Shown here: positions 10,278 to 64,000 of the stretch, piece by piece
Position numbering within the stretch: position 1 is the stretch's first letter
Layout of the letters: every line of letters starts with the position of its first letter
NCBI RefSeq assembly: GCF_003334355.1
Contig: NZ_QOWP01000015.1
DNA length: 64,000 nucleotides
Origin: Escherichia coli
Lineage (GTDB): Bacteria > Pseudomonadota > Gammaproteobacteria > Enterobacterales > Enterobacteriaceae
Direction: 5' to 3' (one strand)
Program-made: the position numbers and the translations under genes
The notes under the pieces: generated by a model
Told to the model about the DNA's origin: nothing
The model's input: the letters and a program-made list of their open reading frames with translations, nothing else
The model's database searches: none

Positions 10278-11590
<1,313 letters not shown>

Positions 11591-22209: not shown

Positions 22210-23162
22210 TGATCGAAGTAAAACACCTGAAAACGCTACAAGCGTTGCGGAACTGCGGCTCTCTCGCAGCCGCTGCGGCGACGTTGCATCAGACGCAATC
22301 CGCCCTGTCTCACCAGTTTAGCGATCTGGAACAACGCCTTGGCTTCCGGCTATTTGTGCGTAAGAGCCAGCCGCTACGCTTTACACCGCAGGGAGAAATC
22401 CTGTTGCAACTGGCAAACCAGGTGCTGCCGCAAATCAGCCAGGCACTGCAAGCCTGCAATGAACCGCAGCAGACGCGTCTGCGCATTGCCATTGAGTGCC
22501 ATAGCTGTATTCAGTGGCTGACGCCCGCGTTAGAAAATTTCCATAAGAACTGGCCGCAGGTAGAGATGGATTTTAAATCGGGCGTGACGTTTGACCCGCA
22601 GCCCGCGTTGCAACAGGGCGAGCTGGATCTGGTGATGACCTCCGATATCCTGCCGCGCAGTGGCCTGCATTATTCGCCGATGTTCGACTATGAAGTGCGT
22701 CTGGTGTTAGCACCTGACCATCCACTGGCGGCGAAAACGCGAATTACACCGGAAGATCTCGCCAGCGAGACGCTGTTGATTTATCCGGTACAGCGTAGTC
22801 GACTGGATGTCTGGCGGCATTTTCTTCAGCCGGCAGGCGTCAGCCCGTCACTGAAAAGCGTCGATAACACCTTATTGTTGATTCAGATGGTTGCCGCACG
22901 GATGGGTATTGCCGCGCTACCGCATTGGGTAGTAGAGAGTTTTGAGCGCCAGGGTCTGGTGGTGACCAAAACCCTGGGCGAAGGCTTGTGGAGCCGACTG
23001 TACGCCGCCGTGCGCGATGGAGAGCAGCGTCAGCCAGTTACGGAAGCGTTTATTCGCTCAGCGCGCAATCACGCCTGCGATCATCTGCCGTTTGTGAAGA
23101 GCGCGGAGCGACCCACTTACGATGCACCCACAGTGAGGCCAGGATCACCAGCGCGCCTGTAA
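22209..23162 (+). CDS. metR: LysR-family transcriptional regulator MetR
   Basis: 317-aa ORF with N-terminal HTH recognised as MetR. Confidence 0.95.
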
Positions 23163-51188: not shown

Positions 51189-52574
51189 TTATTCCTCCAG
51201 TTTATGCGCTTTCCCGTGGCGATTAAGGCCAAAAACTTTATAAATCGCCGTCACCGCCAGCATAAAGATGATGCCAACAAACAGCGACATACGCGTATCT
51301 TCATTAAAGTACATGCCGATCAAAACGCAAATCAGGAATGCCATTGTTACGTAGTTGGCCCACGGGAACAGGATTGAGCGGAACGGATGGCTGGCAATCG
51401 CCGCTTTATGTGCACGCCGAAAACGCAGCTGGCTTATCAATATCACAAACCATGGCACCATCCCCGGAAGCACGCTGGCACTGTAGACGTAGACAAACAC
51501 ACGCTGCGGATTGGGAATGATGTAGTTCAGGCATGAGCCAATTAGCAGAATAGCAATAGATACTGCCACACCCGCAACCGGTACGCCGTGACGGGAAACT
51601 TTCGCCATCGCCGCCGGTAACTGACGGTTTTTCGCCAGTGCGTAGAGCATACGTCCGCAACTGTACATGCCGCTGTTACAGCCAGAGAGCGCAGCCGTCA
51701 GCACCACAAAGTTGATAATGCCCGCCGCTGCGGTAATACCGATTTTGGCAAAAGTCAGTACGAACGGGCTGCCGTTGCTGCCAATTTCATTCCACGGGAA
51801 GATGGTGACGATAACGAAAATCGCGCCTACGTAGAAAATCAGGATCCGCCACAGCACCTTGCCTACGGCACTGCGCAGTGTCACCTGCGGATTCTTCGCT
51901 TCACCGGCAGTAATGCCAATCAGCTCCACGCCCTGGTAGGACGCCACCACAATACACAGCGCGGTCAGGAACCCTTTCCAGCCACCCGCAAAGAAACCGC
52001 CATGCTCTGTGAGATTGCTAAAACCAATCGACTGCCCACCATTGCCAAAGCCAAAGAAAATCACGCCCAGGCCAATGACAATCATCACGATAATCGTGGT
52101 GACTTTGATCATCGCGAACCAGAACTCGATTTCGCCGTACAACCGCACCGCCGCCAGATTCGCCAACGCCACCAGCGCCACTGCGATCAATGCGGGTATC
52201 CACTGCGCCATCTCCGGGAACCAGAACTGGACATAAACGCCAATGGCGGTGATTTCTGAGATCCCCACGGCCATCCACATAAACCAGTAAGACCAGGCGG
52301 TGAGATAACCAAAAAACGGGCTCATATAACGATGCGCATAAACGGCGAACGAACCGGTAACCGGTTCGAGGAACAACATTTCGCCCATTGAACGCATGAT
52401 GAAAAAGACGAACAGCCCGGCGATGATATAGGCCAACAATACGGATGGCCCGGCCCATTTCAGGGTACTGGCGGCCCCCATAAACAGGCCGACGCCAATG
52501 GTGCCCCCCAGGGCGATGAGTTCGATATGTCGAGCTTCCAGCCCACGCTGTAGCTCTGGTTTGTTATCTGCCAT
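51189..52574 (-). CDS. yifK: APC-family amino acid permease YifK
   Basis: 461-aa 12-TM ORF recognised as YifK. Confidence 0.9.
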
Positions 52575-52699
52575 AAATCCTCGTGTTGTGTTTGCATGCT
52601 TTCCGGTGTTACCGGTTATCGTTATGGGTACATCGAGTGTTGCGAATGTTTTCGTAATTCAGGAGAAATGGCAAATAAAGCATTAAAAATTTGAATGCT

Positions 52700-52746
52700 T
52701 TGTGTAATAAAAAAGCAGACAGGCGACGAAGTGACCACTCCGTCGC
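52700..52746 (-). terminator. Candidate terminator downstream of wecG (end of ECA operon)
   Basis: Minus-strand hairpin gcgacggagtggtcacttcgtcgc followed a few nt later by a T-run; a second palindrome aaagcatt...aatgcttt lies just beyond. Confidence 0.4.
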
Positions 52747-52764
52747 TTTACAAAGAGAGGAAAA

Positions 52765-53505
52765 TCAGAGGTTGCCGGTGTAATGCCAGCGTAAATAACG
52801 CAGCAAACGAAGCTGACGCTTAATGCGGCTCGGCTGCGAAAGCAGGCGGTAGAGCCACTCCAGTCCCAGCGTTTGCCAGATTTTCGGTGCGCGTTTTACG
52901 TGACCGGTGAAAACATCGTAAGTCCCGCCAACGCCCATATACAGCGCATCTGGATGCACCAGACGGCAGTCGCGCATGAAGATCTCCTGCTTTGGCGATC
53001 CCATCGCAACGGTGACGATTTGCGCTCCGCTGGCATGAATGCGTTCAAACAGCGCCTGACGCTGCTCGGGTTTAAAATAACCATCCTGACTGCCAACGAT
53101 ATTCACATTCCATTGGTTGCGCAGTTTAGCTTCAGTTTGCGCCAGCACTTCAGGTTTACCGCCCACAAGAAATACCGGCGTCCCTTCTTTGCCTGCGCGC
53201 GCCATCAGCTCTTCCCAGAGATCGGCACCGGCAACGCGGGAAACCTGCGCCTGCGGGTACTTTTTACGTACTGAACGTACAACGCTGATGCCATCCGCAT
53301 ATTTAAATTCGGCAGCGTTAATTAACTCCCTGACCTCGGCGTTATCTTCAATGGTCAGCATTTTTTCGGCATTAATGGCAACCAGCGTTCCCTGCTTAAG
53401 CTGCCCGTCAGCAAACAGATAATCGAGGGCATGCTGCATATCACGCCAACCAAGCAACTGTAAGCCACGCAGCGTATAGGTCGGTGCCGTGGTGTTGTTA
53501 TTCAT
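52765..53505 (-). CDS. wecG: UDP-N-acetyl-D-mannosaminuronic acid transferase WecG (RffM)
   Basis: 246-aa ORF recognised as WecG. Confidence 0.93.
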
Positions 53506-53507
53506 TG

Positions 53508-54860
53508 TTATCCTTCAACCTGCGTCCGGAGCGATGATTTTGTACGTTTATGAATGAGTCCGGCGCTTTCAAAAAGCCAGTACAACAGTTTTGCGATCAT
53601 CAGACATGCGCCGAAGACCACGATAAAAAAGACTACGCGTGAGACAAACGAATCCAGCCCTTCACGTGCCAGCACGATCATATTGAAGATCGCCCCAAAG
53701 CAGAAACTGTGCAATATCGCAGCCTTATAGCGATTAGTCTCGCGGTTGCCCAGCTCATACAGCCAGTCGAACCATTTGATGATCAGTCCAACCACAATCG
53801 CCCCGAGTGGGATGAACAACGCGCCGCCCATCACCACCAGTGAGCCTATAAGCGTAGGCGAGATCGCCAGTCCGGAGTGGTTATTCAGCACTTCCCAGGT
53901 AAAGTAGTTGGCTGAGTTCAGCACCATACTCGGGCGCCCCGGCCACAGCCAGGAAGGGATAAAGACATAGAAATCGCGGACAATTGGAGCCAGGCCCTGG
54001 AAGTCGATGTTGTCGTAGTTCTGCAACAGCAACGCCAGATTCTCCCACGGCGAGAAGGTGTCGCGAGTGAGATAGAGAAACGTATAGAACGCTTCATCGC
54101 CGCTCACATTCATTCCATAGCGTTTTAACGCCAGCCAGAACATGCCAACAATCCCCAGCACGCCCGCCGCCGCCAGCATCCACAACGAAATCCAGCCGCG
54201 AATAATGCCAATAAACAGGAAGATAGCGAATGCAATGATGATATTGGCGCGAGTGCCGCCGACAATCATATAAGTCAGCAAGCCAAAAGCGACCGTGCTG
54301 ACGAGGAAAAACAGCCACGCTTTGCTGTCCTGGCGCAGAAAGTAGACCACCAGCATCGCCGGGATGAAAAAGTAAAAGAAGCGTTTTAACGCCACGCCGG
54401 AGACTTCACTGGAAAAGATCTGACTGTAGGAGTTAAGCCGGAACAGCAAAAAGCCGTTGTGCATGAAGAAGATGCCGACGCTTACCAGCGCGATGCCCAT
54501 CAGGATCACCCACGTAAGATTGGTCTCCACGCGGTTCATGGTAAACAGCGGACGGCGCGGTACATCAGCAACGCGTTTGCGTAGGCGGGTTTTGTAGGTG
54601 ACATAGTAAACCGCGTAGAAGCAGCCCGCAGAAAGCAACGCCTGCAACAAGATTTCTGGCGGCGCGACACCAACATCAAAGCGAAATACCAGCACGCTGG
54701 TCAGCGGGAAGCCGAAGAAAAAGGTGAGCAAAAACAGCAATGAAAAGAAGACATTGAAGTTAAAGCGCACACGGCGAAACTCAAACCAGGTCAGCGTGGC
54801 AATAAACAGCGTGCAGAGCAGCCAGACAACAAACAGGCCACTGAATTGCAGCAGACTCAT
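53508..54860 (-). CDS. wzyE: Enterobacterial common antigen polymerase WzyE
   Basis: 450-aa polytopic membrane ORF recognised as WzyE. Confidence 0.93.
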
Positions 54861-55936
54861 GCGACCTCCCCGGCGGCAATCGCCAACGCCCGCTGCCAGC
54901 CTTGTAGATAGTTAGGGCTAAAGAAGGCAATGGTGTTTTTATCCACCGACGCCAACTGGCGCTGCGCTTCACGCACAATATCCTCGTTGAGATCGTCGGT
55001 AGTAAACAGCACCGGCAAATGTTGTTCCGTCATATCCTGCCAGAACGGATTTTCCCGGTTAAGCACACAAGGAATGCCCGCCTGAATCAGTAAGCACAGC
55101 GTACCAATGCCCTGCTGGCGGGCAAAAATAAAGTAACCAAGATCGCACTGACGAAGTAGCGCCAGATAGGCGTCAAATTCCAGTTTTTCGCTCAGAATTT
55201 GTAGATTTTCTTCGCTGAATAACTCCAGCCCCGCCTGACGAACTTCCTCAATGTACGCTTCGTTATTAGGCGGATATCCCATCGGCACCACCACTTTTAC
55301 CGTATCGCCAAATTGCTGATGAACGGCGCGCAAGGCAGCAATATGCTCATTGCTGCGGTCGCCGGAGTTCCCCACCAGAATGGTCATTTTCCCTTCACGT
55401 TGCCGATCGTTCGCCATCGTATTGAGCGAAGGGTCCATCCGCGTCGGGAAGTACAGCAGTTCGCCCCGCACCTTTGGGTGCGTTTTGGCAAAAAAGCTCA
55501 AATCGCCGCGGGTGGCAAATACACAGCCGACTCGCTTTTGCGCCAGGCGACGTAGTGGGTAAAAAAGCTTATATCTCAAGCCACTGGAAAGCTCATACAG
55601 GTCTGCCCCCCAGATATGCCAGAAAAACTGGCTGGGCTTAATGCCACCACTCAGCAGAGCCAGCCACAGTGTGGGATTGAACTGACCGTGGAAGAAAAAA
55701 CGCTGCTGACGGTTAGCTTTTGCTTTCGCGATGACCGCTTCCGCCAGCGATTTTTTCCCAGGGAAAAATTGCACAGAAAGCGCCGGACAGCTATCACTTA
55801 AGCCGTCGTCCTTGCCAACAACCATAAACTCGCGCGCGTGCTCGCTCGTCGCGGCCAGCGCGTCATTGAAAAACCGCAAAACGGTTCGGTTATGGTGAGG
55901 GATATCCGATCCCAGTACGTGAATCAGTACAGTCAT
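54857..55936 (-). CDS. wecF: TDP-N-acetylfucosamine:lipid II N-acetylfucosaminyltransferase WecF
   Basis: 359-aa ORF recognised as WecF; 4-bp overlaps with flanking genes. Confidence 0.93.
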
Positions 55937-57183
55937 GCCCGCCTACGCCAGAGTAAAAACACGCCACAACAAAGAGAAAAATAGACGATATAAGTTGCCA
56001 TATATGCCTGCGCCGCGCCCAGTGCACCATGCGCAGGGATTAGCCAGTGGGCAAATACCATCAATAAAGTGAACTGGCTGACTTCCGCCAGAATATAAAA
56101 CCGCAGTGACGCTTTGGCGATCACCAGATAACCAAAGACATAAGCGCCCACTTTTAACACATCACCCACTAACTGCCAGGCAAAGAGATCGCGCATAGCG
56201 GTAAATTTATTCGACAACAGCAGCCAGATAGCAAAATCACGCAGCAGCCAGACGGTAAAACTCGCCGCCGCCACTGCCGGTAAGACGAATTTCAGCGATT
56301 TAACCACTTCCCGGGTGATATCGCGCTTTTCCGTTAGCCGCGACAACGTGGGCAGCAAATATACGCTGAACGATGCCGTAATAAATTGCAGGTAGGCATC
56401 GGAAATACTGCTCACCCCTTGCCAGATCCCCACCTCATCCCAGCTATACTGCGCCGCCAGCAGTTTACGCATCATGATGTAAGCAACAGGCAAGGTCACC
56501 GACGTAATCAACGCCATGAGCGTAAATTTGCTCAACTGCCCTGCCAGACCGTTATCCCAGCTGGGTTTCAGATAGCTTAACGGGATGACACCACGTTTGA
56601 TCAACATGATGGCGGCAGGAATTACCACCAGCGCGGGAATCAGCGCCAGACCCAGCAACGCCCCTTCATAACCGCCCAAACGGTAACTGACGTAGTACGC
56701 GAGAACGCCAATCAAGCTGCCGACAATCAGCGATAACGCATTACCTGCGGCATCGCGAAAGCCTTTCATCAGCGCCAGTAACAGGTTGCCCCAGGCGATC
56801 CCCATTTGCACCAGCGCCACTAAACGCACCAGCCCCTGATAGTCGGTATTACCAAACAATCCCTGGCTGATTGGCGCAGCTGCCAGCACAAAAACCAGCG
56901 CCATCAGCGTAGAGAAACCAAGTACCATCGCTGATGAAGTGCCGACCACGCGGCGCAGCTGTTGCGGATTATCATGGTACTGGGCAACGTATTTGGTTAC
57001 ACCGTTAAAGATGCCAGCCCCGGCAAGCACGCCGAGCACGGTAATCAACTGGCGGAAATTTGCCGCCAGCCCAAGCCCCGCCGGACCAAATGACACCGCC
57101 AGCAATTTACCGACCAGTAACCCGGCACCAATCTTGACCAGTGTACTGGCCGCCGTCCACAAGGACGCTTTTGCCAACGACAT
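55933..57183 (-). CDS. wzxE: Lipid III flippase WzxE
   Basis: 416-aa 12-TM ORF recognised as WzxE. Confidence 0.93.
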
Positions 57184-57184
57184 A

Positions 57185-58315
57185 TCAGGAAAAGTAGTTC
57201 AACAAAGTCGCAATTACCGTACGCTGATTGACGGGCGACAGGTTGTAGAACAGCGGCAGGCGCAGCAGGCGCTCGCTCTCTTTGGTGGTGTAGCGATCTT
57301 CACCGTGGAACTCACCAAAGTGTTCCCCCGCAGGGCAACCGTGCAGCGGAATGTAATGAAACACCGCCATGATTTCCGCTTCTTTCAGAAAGTTAATCAA
57401 CGCGCTCCGGTCATCAATATCCCGCAGTTTAATGTAGAACATATGCGCGTTCTGCACGCAGCCATCGGGAATCGACGGCAGCTCGATACGCCCGGCTTTC
57501 GCCAGAGGCGCTAACGCATCGTAGTAGTTTTGCCACAGCGCCAGACGTTGCTGGTTGATACGATCCGCTGCTTCCAGTTGCGCCCACAGGTATGCAGCTT
57601 GCAGATCGGACATCAAATAGCTGGAGCCAATATCGCGCCAGGTATATTTATCGACCTGACCACGGAAGAACTGGCTGCGGTTAGTGCCCTTTTCACGGAT
57701 GATCTCGGCTCGTTCGATTAACGCTTTATCGTTAATCAGCGTCGCGCCGCCTTCACCGCCCGCCGTGTAGTTTTTGGTTTCATGGAAGCTAAAGCAGCCA
57801 ATATGACCAATGGTTCCCAGTGCACGCCCTTTGTAAGTGGACATCACGCCCTGAGCGGCATCTTCTACCACAAACAAATTATGCTTTTTCGCCAACGCCA
57901 TAATGGTGTCCATTTCGCAGGCCACACCCGCGTAATGGACCGGCACGATAACGCGCGTTTTGTCGGTGATCGCCGCTTCAATCAGCGTTTCGTCGATGTT
58001 CATGGTGTCCGGGCGAACATCCACAAAAACGATTTTTGCGCCACGCAGCACAAAGGCATTGGCGGTGGAGACAAAGGTGTAGCTCGGCATGATCACTTCA
58101 TCGCCAGGCTGGATATCGAGCAGCAGCGCCGCCATCTCCAGCGAAGCGGTGCAGGACGGCGTCAGTAACACTTTGGCGCTGCCAAAACGTTGCTCCAGCC
58201 ACTGCTGGCAGCGACGGGTAAAACCGCCATCGCCACACAGTTTGCCGCTACCCATTGCCGACTGCATATAGTCGAGTTCGGTTCCCACCACCGGCGGTGC
58301 GTTAAATGGAATCAT
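57185..58315 (-). CDS. wecE: dTDP-4-amino-4,6-dideoxygalactose transaminase WecE (RffA)
   Basis: 376-aa DegT/PLP-aminotransferase ORF recognised as WecE. Confidence 0.95.
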   Translation of the reverse strand: MIPFNAPPVVGTELDYMQSAMGSGKLCGDGGFTRRCQQWLEQRFGSAKVLLTPSCTASLEMAALLLDIQPGDEVIMPSYTFVSTANAFVLRGAKIVFVDVRPDTMNIDETLIEAAITDKTRVIVPVHYAGVACEMDTIMALAKKHNLFVVEDAAQGVMSTYKGRALGTIGHIGCFSFHETKNYTAGGEGGATLINDKALIERAEIIREKGTNRSQFFRGQVDKYTWRDIGSSYLMSDLQAAYLWAQLEAADRINQQRLALWQNYYDALAPLAKAGRIELPSIPDGCVQNAHMFYIKLRDIDDRSALINFLKEAEIMAVFHYIPLHGCPAGEHFGEFHGEDRYTTKESERLLRLPLFYNLSPVNQRTVIATLLNYFS

Positions 58316-58319
58316 GTGA

Positions 58320-58994
58320 TCACCTGTATAACCAGTACGCGGTGCTTTCTACATTCGCACCACTTTGTATGTATCGTTTAAGCGCGGCGGTGTTGCCCAT
58401 TTGGGTCGCCACCCGCAAAGTTGTTTTACCGCGAGCATACGCCCAGTTTAGCGCCGTTTGCATCAGCTCAGCACCTGCACCGCGTCCAGCCAGCAGGCCA
58501 ATTCGCGCATCTGTCGCATTGAGTTCCCGTAAAGAGACATAGCCGCGAATATCGCCGGACGCCGCACGTAAAATCAGACATTGATGATCAAAGGTGCCGC
58601 GCACGGCATTTTCAATCCACTGTGCATAAAAGCGACTGCTGGCGTCAGGCGCATACCACGGCGCACGAAAACGGCTTTGCGCAAATGCGGCGCTGGCTAA
58701 CTGACGTAATGCGGGAATATCGGTCTCTTGTGCCACTACAGCACCGCTATCACTGGCATTGTTCACGGGTAGCGCCAAATCAACTTCACCTTCTACCAGG
58801 GAGAATCCCAGCTGTTGCAGGGCATCCAGTTCACCCGTATTTGATGCCGCAATTTTGGCCTGCACCCGTGACCACGGCGCTAACGCGTCTGGCGTCAGGA
58901 GCGGTGCTTCAGACGTAATGCGCACGATGGCGCTGTTAACACCAAAGAAGGCGTTTTCCCAGGTTAGTGGCTCAATACTGGCGCGGACGGGCAC
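58320..58994 (-). CDS. wecD: dTDP-fucosamine acetyltransferase WecD (RffC)
   Basis: 224-aa GNAT-like ORF; overlaps the rffH 3' end by 23 bp. Confidence 0.9.
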
Positions 58995-59853
58995 GAAGTA
59001 ACTCCAGCAGATATTGGCCGTAGCCAGTTTTCGCTAATGAACTGGCAGCACGCTTCACACCCTCGTCATCGAGCCAGCCGTTACGCCAGGCAATCTCTTC
59101 CAGGCAGGCAATCTTAAAGCCCTGGCGTTTTTCCACCGTCTGTACAAAGGTGCTGGCTTCAATCAGGCTGTCGTGAGTGCCGGTATCCAGCCAGGCAAAT
59201 CCGCGCCCGAGCAGTTCAACGGTCAGGTTGCCCGCCTCGAGGTACATCTGGTTGATGGAGGTAATCTCCAGTTCACCACGCTCCGACGGCTTCACCTGCT
59301 TTGCGTACTCCACGACTTTACTGTCGTAGAAATAAAGCCCGGTCACCGCCCAGTTTGACTTCGGCTGTTTTGGCTTTTCTTCCAGCGAGATAGCGCGGAA
59401 ATTGTCGTCAAACTCCACCACGCCAAAGCGTTCCGGGTCCATCACCTGATAGCCAAAAACCGTCGCCCCTTCGGTGCGCGCCGCAACATGACGCAGCTTC
59501 GGACTGAAGCCCTGACCGAAGAAGATGTTATCGCCCAGCACCAGACAAGAAGGTTCACCATTAAGGAAGGTTTCACCGATGATAAAGGCCTGCGCCAGAC
59601 CGTCCGGGCTGGGCTGTTCGGCATATTCCAGCTGGATACCGAACTCACTACCATCGCCCAGCAGGCGCTGGAAATAACCTTTATCTTCCGGCGTAGTGAT
59701 GATGAGAATTTCGCGGATACCGGCCAGCATCAGCACCGACAGCGGATAGTAAATCATTGGCTTATCGTAAATCGGCAACAGTTGCTTCGATACGCCGCGC
59801 GTAATCGGATGCAATCGGGTGCCGGAACCGCCCGCCAGGATAATACCTTTCAT
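58972..59853 (-). CDS. rffH: Glucose-1-phosphate thymidylyltransferase RffH (RmlA2)
   Basis: 293-aa [21 protein letters not shown] recognised as RmlA-type thymidylyltransferase. Confidence 0.95.
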
Positions 59854-59871
59854 GTTTGCCTCCGCTGAAAA

Positions 59872-60939
59872 TTAGCCTTTCAGACCTAAACGCTCGCCCT
59901 GATAGCTGCCGTCCTGCACCTGCTTCCACCAGCTTTCATTAGCCAGATACCACTGCACCGTTTTACGCATTCCACTTTCAAAGGTTTCCTGCGGCAGCCA
60001 GCCAAGTTCACGGGCAATTTTCGAAGCATCAATGGCATAACGCAGATCATGCCCCGGACGGTCAGCGACAAAGGTGATCAAGTCACTATAGTGCACCACG
60101 CCGTGCGGCTTGTTCGGAGCCAGTTCTTCCAGCAGCTCGCAAATGGTTTCCACAACATCGAGATTCTTACGCTCGTTGTGACCACCAATATTATAGGTTT
60201 CACCGACTTTCCCGGTGGTCGCCACGCAATACAGCGCGCGAGCGTGATCTTCCACATACAGCCAGTCACGGATTTGCTGCCCGTTGCCATATACCGGCAG
60301 CGATTTACCCGCCAGCGCGTTGAGGATCATCAGCGGGATCAGTTTTTCCGGAAAGTGGTAAGGACCGTAGTTATTCGAGCAGTTGGTGATAAGCGTCGGC
60401 AGACCGTAGGTCCGCAGCCAGGCGCGCACCAGATGGTCGCTGCTGGCTTTTGACGCGGAATAAGGGCTGCTCGGCGCATACGGCGTGGTTTCGGTGAAGA
60501 AATCATCCGTCGAGTGCAGGTCACCATATACTTCGTCGGTGGAGATATGATGAAAACGGAACGCTGATTTTTTATCTTCCGTCAGCGTATTCCAGTAAGC
60601 CCGCGCCGCTTCAAGCAATGTATAAGTCCCGACAATGTTGGTTTCAATAAACGCTGCCGGGCCGTCAATAGAACGGTCAACATGGCTTTCGGCTGCCAGA
60701 TGCATGACACAGTCTGGCTGATGCTCAGTGAATACGCGTGCCAGTTCTGCCCGATCGCAGATATCAACTTTCTCAAAGGCAAAGTGCTCGCTTTGCGCGA
60801 CCGGTGCCAGCGACATCAGGTTTCCGGCGTAGGTCAGCTTATCGACCACTACCACCGCATCGCTCGTTTCGTTGATGATATAACGCACCAGCGCCGAGCC
60901 AATAAACCCGGCACCACCTGTTATCAGAATTTTTCTCAT
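59872..60939 (-). CDS. rffG: dTDP-glucose 4,6-dehydratase RffG (RmlB2)
   Basis: 355-aa [25 protein letters not shown]. Confidence 0.95.
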
Positions 60940-62201
60940 CAGCGCCAGACTCCTTTGGCATCGACGACATACTGCTGATGGACATTGTCGCCATTGATAA
61001 CTTTGAACTGACTATGATCGACCAGCATCACCAGCACGTCTGCCGTTGCCAGCGCCTCGTCAAGCTGCGCCAGAGTACAAAGCCCGGTCAGTTTTTTCGG
61101 CAACTGGTGGATGTTAGGCTCAACAACCAGCGTTTCGCCGCTGTGCCACTGGGCGATCAGTTCAGCGATTTCCATCGCCGGGCTTTCGCGCAGGTCATCA
61201 ATATTCGGTTTAAACGCCAGACCAAAGCAGGCGATTTTCAGTTCACTGGCGCGTTTATCGGTAGCAGCAAGGCAGTCGGCAACCGCCGCTTTCACCTGAT
61301 CGATAACCCAGAACGGTTTGTGATCGTTAACTTCGCGCGCGGTACGGATAAGCCGCGCCTGCTGGGGGTTCTGTGCCACGATAAACCACGGATCAACAGC
61401 AATGCAGTGACCGCCCACGCCAGGGCCAGGCTGAAGAATATTAACGCGAGGGTGACGATTCGCCAGGCGAATCAGTTCCCAGACGTTAATCCCCTGATCG
61501 GCACAAATCAGCGACAATTCATTAGCAAAAGCGATATTCACATCGCGGAAGCTGTTTTCGGTGAGCTTACACATTTCCGCCGTCCGCGAGTTAGTGACGA
61601 CACACTCACCTTCGAGGAAAATTTTGTACAGTTCGCTGGCGCGGGCCGAACAAACCGGCGTCATACCACCAATCACGCGATCGTTTTTAATCAGCTCGAC
61701 CATTACCTGTCCTGGTAACACGCGTTCCGGGCAGTAAGCAATGTTGACGTCCGCCTGCTCGCCCACCTGCTGCGGGAAAGTGAGATCCGGACGCATCTCT
61801 GCTAACCATTCTGCCATCTTCTCGGTTGACCCCACCGGCGAGGTGGATTCAAGGATCACCAGCGCGCCTTTTTTCAGCACTGGCGCAATGGAGCGAGCAG
61901 CCGATTCAACGTAGGTCATATCTGGCTCATGATCGCCCTTAAACGGCGTGGGTACAGCAATCAGCCAGGCATCCGCTTCAACTGGCGTCGTGCTCGCTCG
62001 TAAAAAACCGCCTTCTACGGCAGTTTTTACTACACTCGCCAAATCAGGTTCGACGATATGGATTTCGCCACGATTGATGGTATCAACCGCATGTTGGTTG
62101 ATATCGACACCAATTACCTGTTTTTGCCGTGAGGCAAACGCTGCTGCCGTTGGCAGCCCGATATAACCCAGTCCGATAACAGAAATGGTCGCAAAACTCA
62201 T
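60939..62201 (-). CDS. wecC: UDP-N-acetyl-D-mannosamine dehydrogenase WecC (RffD)
   Basis: 420-aa UDP-sugar dehydrogenase ORF with GLGYIG Rossmann motif. Confidence 0.95.
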
Positions 62202-63328
62202 AGTGATATCCGATTATTTTTTAACGCTTCCAGAATGCGAGAGCATGCCTGACCATCACCATACGGGTTATGGGCGCGGCTCATAGCTTGATATTCGTTT
62301 TCGTCTTTTAAAAGACGCGTCACTTCCTCGACAATTCGCTGCTTATCCGTGCCTACCAGACGCACCGTACCCGCCGTCACCGCTTCCGGACGCTCAGTGG
62401 TATCGCGCATCACCAGCACAGGTTTCCCCAGCGAAGGCGCTTCTTCCTGAATGCCGCCTGAGTCGGTCAAAATCAGCCAGGCGTGGTTCATCAGCCAGAC
62501 AAACGGTAAATACTCCTGGGGATCGATCAGAATGACATTTTTCACATGCCCCAGAATGCGATTGACCGGCTCTCTGACGTTCGGGTTGAGATGCACCGGA
62601 TAGACAATCTGGATGTCCTGGTGCGTGGTGGCGATGTCTGCCAGCGCGTGGCAGATTTCTTCAAAGCCACGACCGAAACTCTCACGCCTGTGACCGGTCA
62701 CCAGAATCATCTTTTTATCGGGGTCGATAAACGGGTAATTTGCCGCCAGTTCTGAACGCAGCGTGTCGCTGCTCATCACCTGGTCACGCACCCATAACAG
62801 TGCATCAATGACTGTATTACCGGTAATGAAGATTCGGCTATCCGCAACGTTTTCACGCAGCAAGTTTTGCCGGGAAGTTTCGGTTGGAGAGAAGTGATAC
62901 ATCGCCAGATGCCCGGTCAATGTACGGTTAGCCTCTTCCGGCCACGGCGAATAGAGATCGCCCGTGCGCAGACCAGCCTCAACGTGACCAACAGGAATAC
63001 GCTGATAAAACGCCGCCAGGCTGGTTGCCAGCGTCGTCGTCGTATCGCCGTGAACCAGCACGACGTCTGGTTTGAACTCGGCAAGAATAGGTTTTAGCCC
63101 TTCCAGAATCCGACAGGTTATCTCTGTCAGGCCCTGTCCTGGCTGCATTATGTTGAGATCGTAGTCAGGTACAATGGAAAAGAGTTTCAGCACCTGATCG
63201 AGCATTTCCCGATGCTGCGCAGTGACGCAAACTTTAGCCTCAAAAAAAGGATCTTTTGCCAACGCATGCACCAACGGCGCCATCTTGATGGCTTCCGGGC
63301 GCGTACCAAATACAGTCAGTACTTTCAC
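62198..63328 (-). CDS. wecB: UDP-N-acetylglucosamine 2-epimerase WecB (RffE)
   Basis: Track ORF to 63370; recognised 376-aa WecB begins with GTG-encoded M (GTG AAA GTA CTG = [16 protein letters not shown]) at 63328. Confidence 0.93.
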
Positions 63329-63383
63329 ATCGATTCTCTTCGAATAAGCGGCGAGCGCCTTTGCGCTCACCGCAGCAGTGTTG

Positions 63384-64000
63384 CTATTTCGAGCAACGGC
63401 GGGTTAATGCGACACCAGCCCCGATCAGCCCCCCGACAATGCCCCACATAATCATCAGGAAGGCACGACGTGGGCTATCGCGTTTTACCGGTTCTTCCGG
63501 CGTACGCAAATAGCGATAGGTCTGAAAACGCGGATCCAGGGTTGGACCAACATTCAGGGTGTTTAACATGGCCCGATTCTGATCATAGTCGAGATCAAAG
63601 GCCGGACCGACGGCCTGTAAATTTTCCAGTCGAGCCTGAAGCATTGGACGCCCAAGCAGGAACATTTCTGAATCAGGTAATTCCTCGGCAGGTACATCTG
63701 TCGCACTGCGCGAAATATTATGCTGCTCAGCAATTTTCAGCGCCTGCTCAATGCTGTTCATCCGGCGGTCGTAGATGGCTTTCGCCACCTCTTCCTGACG
63801 CTTCACCTGAGCTTTCATCTGGATGGTACGCGCCGCCCATGCGCCTTTCAGCTCATCATTCAGATGGCTGGCTGCACGCTGGCTGGCAAAAGCAACATAC
63901 TGACGTAACAGGTTATTAGCGTCAGGCGCGGTTTCGGCAATAAGCTTCACGCTGTCATTGACCGCGCGGGTAAAGTCTCCGGGGATAAACTGGATGTTGT
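63384..64000 (-). CDS. wzzE: ECA polysaccharide chain-length modulation protein WzzE (3' part; 5' end beyond window)
   Basis: C-terminal part with terminal TM helix ([15 protein letters not shown]); reading frame stays open to the window edge; synteny with wecB. Confidence 0.85.

Follow-up and report, generated by a model that had tools for sequence, protein, structure and literature searches.

The 64,000-nt stretch of Escherichia coli DNA analysed here (contig NZ_QOWP01000015.1 of assembly GCF_003334355.1; hereafter the window) carries on its minus strand the wec/rff operon of enterobacterial common antigen (ECA) synthesis. The 12 kb around this cluster share 100% identity with E. coli chromosomes on deposit, and 5426/5426 complete genomes contain them. 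Gene content and order match the PGAP feature table of the identical record. The gene coordinates were transferred from that annotation to window positions, and the spacings between genes were read from the sequence. The order wecA-wzzE-wecB-wecC-rffG-rffH-wecD-wecE-wzxE-wecF-wzyE-wecG, downstream of rho, identifies the cluster as that of ECA; wecA and rho sit beyond the window. Ten complete genes lie within 52765-63384, all with intact open reading frames (ORFs) that end as annotated, while wzzE has its 3′ end at 63384 and its remainder runs off the window. Comparison with the annotated E. coli wec/rff locus revealed no difference in gene content, order, coordinates or start codons: this is the same locus, an ordinary, well-annotated operon with genes packed end to end, and both the locus and the phenomenon were already known. 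The S3 Table of PMC5230787 quotes RegulonDB as listing a single operon here. The features are listed in Table 1.

An earlier note on this DNA had described eleven genes stitched together by overlapping stop and start codons, and had proposed extensive translational coupling among them. All of its spacings were correct (2 nt between wzyE and wecG, three 4-bp overlaps, 1 nt between wecE and wzxE, one nucleotide shared by wecC and rffG, and 23 bp shared by rffH and wecD). The GTG start of wecB could likewise be read from the sequence, and 77/77 species have GTG at the equivalent codon. The start of wecD, absent from that description, is also a GTG. The count of eleven has to be lowered to the ten complete genes, since wzzE merely ends in the range, 55 nt from wecB. 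Most junctions are tight, but rffG/rffH (+18) and wzzE/wecB (+55) are not. Spacings from -4 (a 4-nt overlap) to about +3 usually couple neighbouring genes in E. coli (PMC6728339; PMC12548453), and six of the nine junctions from wecB to wecG fall in this range (-4, -1, +1, -4, -4 and +2). The wecD/wecE junction, at +4, lies just beyond it, and rffG/rffH, rffH/wecD (-23) and wzzE/wecB are also outside.

Table 1. Genes, junctions and signals of the wec/rff cluster in window positions. Junctions are named upstream gene first; negative spacings are overlaps.
Feature	Position	Strand	Basis and remarks
wzzE	from 63384, leaves window	minus	PGAP
wecB (UDP-GlcNAc 2-epimerase)	62198-63328	minus	PGAP, intact ORF; GTG start at 63328
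wecC (UDP-ManNAc dehydrogenase)	60939-62201	minus	PGAP, intact ORF
rffG (dTDP-glucose 4,6-dehydratase)	59872-60939	minus	PGAP, intact ORF
rffH/rfbA (glucose-1-phosphate thymidylyltransferase)	58972-59853	minus	PGAP, intact ORF; 18 nt after rffG
wecD/rffC (dTDP-fucosamine acetyltransferase)	58320-58994	minus	PGAP, intact ORF; GTG start at 58994
wecE/rffA (transaminase)	57185-58315	minus	PGAP, intact ORF; 4 nt after wecD
wzxE (lipid III flippase)	55933-57183	minus	PGAP, intact ORF; 1 nt after wecE
wecF/rffT (Fuc4NAc transferase)	54857-55936	minus	PGAP, intact ORF
wzyE (ECA polymerase)	53508-54860	minus	PGAP, intact ORF
wecG (ManNAcA transferase)	52765-53505	minus	PGAP, intact ORF; 2 nt after wzyE
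wzzE/wecB junction, +55		minus	read from sequence
wecB/wecC junction, -4, ATGA	62198-62201	minus	read from sequence
wecC/rffG junction, -1, TGATG, one shared base	60937-60941	minus	read from sequence
rffG/rffH junction, +18		minus	read from sequence
rffH/wecD junction, -23, out-of-frame overlap GTGCCCGTCCGCGCCAGTATTGA	58972-58994	minus	read from sequence
wecD/wecE junction, +4	58316-58319	minus	read from sequence
wecE/wzxE junction, +1	57184	minus	read from sequence
wzxE/wecF junction, -4, ATGA	55933-55936	minus	read from sequence
wecF/wzyE junction, -4, ATGA	54857-54860	minus	read from sequence
wzyE/wecG junction, +2		minus	read from sequence
wecD Shine-Dalgarno sequence GGAG	59002-59005	minus	read from sequence; within rffH, 7 nt upstream of GTG
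Conserved stem-loop GCGGUGAGCGC-AAAG-GCGCUCGCCGC in the 55-nt wzzE-wecB spacer	63348-63373	minus	covariation in 70 Enterobacteriaceae sequences
wecB initiation region AAGAG-AAUCG-AUGUGA, near-invariant, weak Shine-Dalgarno sequence	63325-63340	minus	77-species alignment

The nine wecB-to-wecG junctions were compared by one-sided Fisher tests with the 29 other same-strand neighbour pairs of the window. Overlaps were found at 5/9 wec junctions and 6/29 background pairs (p = 0.06), and spacings of +4 or less at 8/9 and 9/29, respectively (p = 0.003). When the background was limited to closely spaced, probably operonic pairs, these values became p = 0.2 and p = 0.04. The dapF-yigA-xerC-yigB run of the same window has spacings of -4, -4 and -1. 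The packing of the wec genes is real and denser than average, yet within the normal range of E. coli operons. Moreover, a recent review (PMC12548453) ranks -4 and -1 well ahead of all other gene spacings in prokaryotes and attributes their abundance in part to the ease with which they evolve. A rival account takes the packing for compaction without function, with overlaps produced by genome streamlining and the easy evolution of NTGA, each gene initiated by free 30S subunits, and the spacing reflecting only where the proteins end. The overlaps in six unrelated background pairs and the genome-wide frequency of -4 and -1 both favour such an account; its bearing on the individual junctions is considered below.

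To follow the junctions in other species, wec clusters were collected from 80 Enterobacteriaceae species, one genome each, and the E. coli proteins were mapped onto each locus (individual loci are given by L numbers). The 4-nt ATGA overlap was found at wecB/wecC in 76/76 species, at wzxE/wecF in 77/77 and at wecF/wzyE in 76/76, and the -23 overlap of rffH and wecD in all 44 of the 44 species that carry rffH. The wecE/wzxE spacing is +1 in 75/77 species and wecD/wecE is +4 in 76/78. The single spacer base of the former and the four of the latter vary freely, and in this alignment it is the length of both spacers, not their sequence, that is constrained. The wecC/rffG junction alternates between -4 (TTGA or GTGA, 25 species) and -1 (TAATG or TGATG, 21 species). 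In contrast, rffG/rffH has 14 different spacings, from 3 to 153 nt, and wzyE/wecG has 13, from -8 to +19. Since these two spacers drift at the same divergence, they serve as internal controls, and the conserved spacings show, as judged by this comparison, purifying selection on junction geometry. A gap that stays at 4 nt between wecD and wecE though its sequence is free is not readily explained by compaction alone.

A homologue search with WecD gave close relatives only (73% identity or more) and added no phylogenetic depth. A search of 50%-identity clusters, combined with contig look-ups, yielded loci farther removed, in which WecD is 42-55% identical; two of the contigs show the wecC/wecD junction only. 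Among the distant loci L084-L088, wzxE/wecF is still -4 in L084, L085, L086 and L088, and wecF/wzyE and wecB/wecC are mostly -4. The rffH/wecD overlap is still -23 in L086, where rffH is present.

Several loci of this collection showed peculiarities of their own. L088 (GCA_003600245.1) has a rearranged ECA-like order, wecB-wecD-wecE-wzxE-wecF-wzyE-wecG-wecC, flanked by genes for a Ser/Thr kinase and for a glycosyltransferase of the PMT family, and L085 has an ECA-like cluster with wecB reversed; the cluster proteins of these two loci are 31-68% identical to those of E. coli. The record titled Chryseobacterium sp. 18061 (L058) contains a wec cluster typical of Enterobacteriaceae; the culture may have been mislabelled or mixed. 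Finally, the matches to rffH, wecE, wzxE and wzyE were fragmented in Citrobacter koseri NCTC10786 (L007), suggesting frameshifts or assembly errors.

The 23-nt overlap of rffH and wecD is unusually long beside the other junctions, and longest-ORF annotation classically yields both GTG starts and long overlaps. The annotated start could thus be an artefact, with wecD truly beginning past the rffH stop. The comparative evidence makes this very improbable. Alignment of the orthologues, which the earlier note had given as the way to confirm the start, places a start codon at the codon homologous to GTG 58994 in the 80 Enterobacteriaceae species and in six distant loci, and not downstream of the rffH stop. 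In E. coli this GTG has no in-frame ATG, GTG or TTG competitor from the upstream stop as far as the conserved W12, nor on to at least codon 16. The conserved motif I-E-P-L-x-W-E-N-x-F-F starts within this interval, at codon 7 (I7, W12). The 34 species that lack rffH carry an ATG, GTG or TTG at the homologous codon; in 23/34 the distance to the conserved Trp is 11 codons, and the rest are within five codons of that. In clusters with a spacer after wecC, no other start is often available. Similarly, the distant WecD homologues start 11-12 codons before the Trp, three of them with ATG. An ATT at codon 7, beside the rffH stop, was considered as a start and rejected, since codon 1 is still a canonical start in the species where rffH is absent.

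The overlap itself bears the mark of two translated frames. Across 43 distinct sequences, column identity is 0.96 in the overlap and 0.83 and 0.76 in the flanks that encode only rffH and only wecD, respectively. Third codon positions of wecD are conserved at 1.00 inside the overlap versus 0.60 downstream, and those of rffH at 0.88 inside versus 0.67 upstream; synonymous sites frozen in both frames point to dual-coding constraint. In addition, the crystallised WecD (PDB 2FS5/2FT0) matches residues 2-224, beginning at residue 2 of the ORF, and WecD database entries are 224-225 aa long almost throughout. The Shine-Dalgarno (SD) sequence of wecD has a duplex energy of -5.9 kcal/mol, and in 89% of species the value is -3.5 or lower. 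On this comparative evidence the wecD start at GTG 58994 is real.

The pair rffG-rffH is missing from the ECA cluster in 34/80 Enterobacteriaceae species (for example, L005, L011, L016, L018, L025, L026, L029, L030 and L033), as well as from the distant locus L084. The loss is patchy even within Citrobacter, Klebsiella and Raoultella, and rfbB/rfbA paralogues presumably supply the RffG/RffH function in these species. Remnants could be recognised in some loci: in Raoultella and Klebsiella a 78-nt wecC-wecD spacer still contains ~20 nt from the start of rffG and ~25 nt from the end of rffH, and 48 codons of rffG survive as a stub in one distant locus. The GTGA formed by the wecC stop and the rffG start is, in several Citrobacter species, fused directly to codon 2 of wecD. 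This fusion at two GTG starts leaves a -4 junction. Overall, wecC/wecD is -4 in 16/34 species without rffGH, and the re-formed junctions fit, without proving, selection for a tight junction. Compaction without function would not lead one to expect them.

The geometry of the wec junctions resembles that of the ATGA-coupled pairs of E. coli (PMC6728339): the genes are co-directional members of one operon, joined by ATGA or TGATG overlaps or by gaps of 1-4 nt, and the SD of the downstream gene is likewise variable and sometimes absent. In contrast to those pairs, any dependence of the wec genes on upstream translation is a prediction from sequence, and the rffH/wecD spacing of -23 lies outside the range where reinitiation coupling has been seen. 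In reporter assays, four of five native ATGA pairs were coupled (PMC6728339), and, as one was not, geometry alone is no proof of coupling.

The predicted initiation signals differ widely along the cluster. No SD complementarity was found for wzxE (+0.4 kcal/mol; 0% of 76 species reach -3.5). The SD of wecC is weak (-3.3), and that of wecF has a median of -2.5 across species, with -6.2 in this window. Strong SDs precede rffG (-8.2), rffH (GGAGG, -9.5) and wzyE (-11.7), and wecG has its own SD (-5.5) in a ribosome-binding site (RBS) predicted to be very accessible. The good SDs of rffG, rffH, wecD, wzyE and wecG argue, at the level of sequence signals, against a single coupled chain. The overlap of rffH and wecD also speaks against it: coupling is reported to drop fast with longer overlaps and to be absent at -25 in a systematic series (Tian and Salis, as cited in PMC12548453), and -23 is a geometry at which reinitiation-type coupling is reported absent. 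The geometry is compatible with the coupling proposed in the earlier note, and coupling is likely at some junctions, but one chain of eleven genes is unlikely.

Indirect data on three wec genes come from a translatome study of kasugamycin resistance (PMC5230787). wecC (rffD) and wzxE are among its 137 resistant transcripts (KEV above 2; S3 Table), while wecE (rffA) is not (KEV 0.54). The resistant class is enriched for closely following operon genes, for which the authors propose reinitiation. Both resistant wec genes belong to the three that are poor in SD, namely wecC, wzxE and wecF. This resistance weighs against compaction without function, as does the behaviour of wzxE, which lacks SD complementarity in every one of the 76 species and yet follows wecE at a spacing of exactly +1 with a variable base. 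The predicted accessibility of most wec start regions and the ATGA pair of bioBF, which shows no coupling (PMC6728339), speak for it. Taken together, we consider it unlikely that the packing is compaction alone.

A second account would keep coupling and place it in the unfolding of the RNA: ribosomes translating the upstream gene would melt a structure that hides the RBS and a new 30S subunit would bind, with no reinitiation by the same ribosome. Such a mechanism is established for atpHA, as quoted in PMC6728339 and PMC5230787. The wzyE start agrees with coupling of this kind, as its strong SD lies inside the most stable local structure predicted for the cluster, with an opening energy of 13.8 kcal/mol (94th percentile). 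However, none of the remaining nine start regions exceeds the 38th percentile of opening energy, and wzxE, wecC and wecF do not have the SD that a fresh 30S subunit would use. As the main mode of coupling in the operon, unfolding is a rather improbable explanation.

We favour, with reasonable confidence, a wec operon that is a mosaic of initiation modes and not one uniform chain; what is observed is the geometry with its conservation and the positions of the starts, and the modes at the individual junctions are what we infer. At wecB/wecC, wecE/wzxE and wzxE/wecF, where there is little or no SD, terminating ribosomes would probably reinitiate at the neighbouring start, and the level of each downstream protein would then track that of its upstream neighbour. 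At wecF/wzyE, the ATGA and the strong SD in a predicted structure suggest reinitiation, opening by upstream translation, or both. For rffG, rffH, wecD and wecG, which have their own SDs, largely de novo initiation is expected; at wecD the start is the GTG located 23 nt within rffH, and the GGAG 7 nt upstream of it would serve as the SD. The block from wecB to wecG is set apart from wecA-wzzE by a structured spacer of 55 nt, and the wecB GUG lies within AUGUGA.

Several points weigh against this mosaic. The ATGA pair of bioBF is uncoupled despite a weak SD (Huber et al., PMC6728339). The nine start regions other than that of wzyE are predicted to be accessible, which would permit independent initiation, and the conserved spacings could stem in part from constraint on the protein termini and not from translation. 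Relative to other pairs in operons of the window, tight spacing is only modestly enriched at the wec junctions, and kasugamycin resistance is a correlate of coupling only. Finally, a literature search on translational coupling, overlaps and start codons of the wec genes returned no experiment, only unrelated uses of the terms, and a 2025 review of ECA lists no translational regulation.

Consensus scans found 5 promoter-like sites (8.8 expected) and 23 terminator-like sites (12.6 expected), none of the latter in an inter-gene spacer. Two of the terminator-like sites start just downstream of the wecF/wzyE ATGA (54854-54837).

Adjoining these junctions, though not part of them, the wzzE-wecB spacer and the wecB start region have conserved features that are possibly regulatory. 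The sequence of the spacer stem-loop differs between genera while its pairing is kept, with compensatory double changes at 9/9 consensus pairs. Pairing is seen in 88% of the alignment cells, versus 34-63% after sliding of the partner columns, and 115 cells carry double changes (45 ± 8 in shuffles). The E. coli spacer (70 nt) folds at -29.6 kcal/mol (z = -4.7). A search of positions 52000-64000 against Rfam 15 at a permissive threshold returned two chance-level matches (E 0.27 and 0.44, far below gathering), neither in the spacer. The hairpin was considered as an intrinsic terminator and rejected because it is not followed by a U-tract, and the terminator scan did not call it; the stem is followed by UUAUUCGAAGAG in E. 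coli, whose place is taken by CUAAUCGAAG in most species. The hairpin resembles the intercistronic hairpins of mRNA processing and stability, having a GC-rich stem of 9-11 bp between cistrons that is kept by compensatory changes. Unlike those described, it belongs to no Rfam family and has been seen here only as sequence. A second small hairpin, GUUGCUCGAAAUAGCAAC (63380-63397, minus), spans the wzzE TAG stop in Escherichia and is not conserved in other genera. Another small stem, predicted in E. coli with AAGAG in its loop, is doubtful, as the variants in other species, judged by eye, seem to disrupt its pairing and not to restore it.

The wecB initiation region GAAGAGAAUCGAUGUGAAAGUA (63320-63345, minus) is almost invariant across genera though mostly non-coding; the near-constant stretch downstream of the stem-loop covers ~25 bases, both non-coding and early coding, and reads GAAGAGAAUCG-AUGUGA-AAGUA. 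Positions 63330-63325 read ATGTGA, an AUG-UGA start-stop that overlaps the wecB GUG start. This context is ATGTGA in 65, TTGTGA in 11 and ACGTGA in 1 of the 77 species, so that the 5′ codon is start-capable in 76/77. At AUGUG and GUGUG start-stop sites such as that of narQ, termination-reinitiation can supply ribosomes to the 3′ GUG (PMC9841429); sites of this class are defined by a dependence of the 3′ GUG on A4 and on RF2-mediated termination. wecB is among the 'atGTG' genes of Table 2 of that paper, as a table entry only and with no SD assigned. As in the narQ-type ambiguous starts, the wecB GUG is preceded by AU, giving AUGUGA. However, two distant loci keep the GUG and an AAGAG-like motif with ACG or CUG in place of the AUG, and one of the two lacks the hairpin. 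The start-stop is thus not universal, and the ACGUGA and CUGUGA of these relatives argue against a strict requirement for it. It is conceivable, though doubtful, that the spacer is a cis-acting control point, where the stem-loop and the AUGUGA/GUG region would set the entry of ribosomes or of stable mRNA into wecB-wecG, to be relayed by the -4 and +1 junctions. If so, this one site would fix both the dosage of the ECA enzymes and the supply of UDP-ManNAc, on which the receptor glycan of phage N4 also draws.

The practical value of these results is limited: the annotated starts of wecD and wecB are confirmed and the best junctions for a test of coupling are singled out. For the design of deletions and tags, it should be noted that the final 25-30 nt of rffH, wecB, wecE, wzxE and wecF hold the start signals of the next gene. 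The understanding of ECA synthesis, and of translational coupling in general, is unchanged.

Elsewhere in the window, two convergent gene pairs of the PGAP annotation also overlap: metR (plus strand) and bioP (minus strand) by 113 nt at 23026-23138, and rfaH (plus strand) and tatD (minus strand) by 4 nt at 10784-10787.

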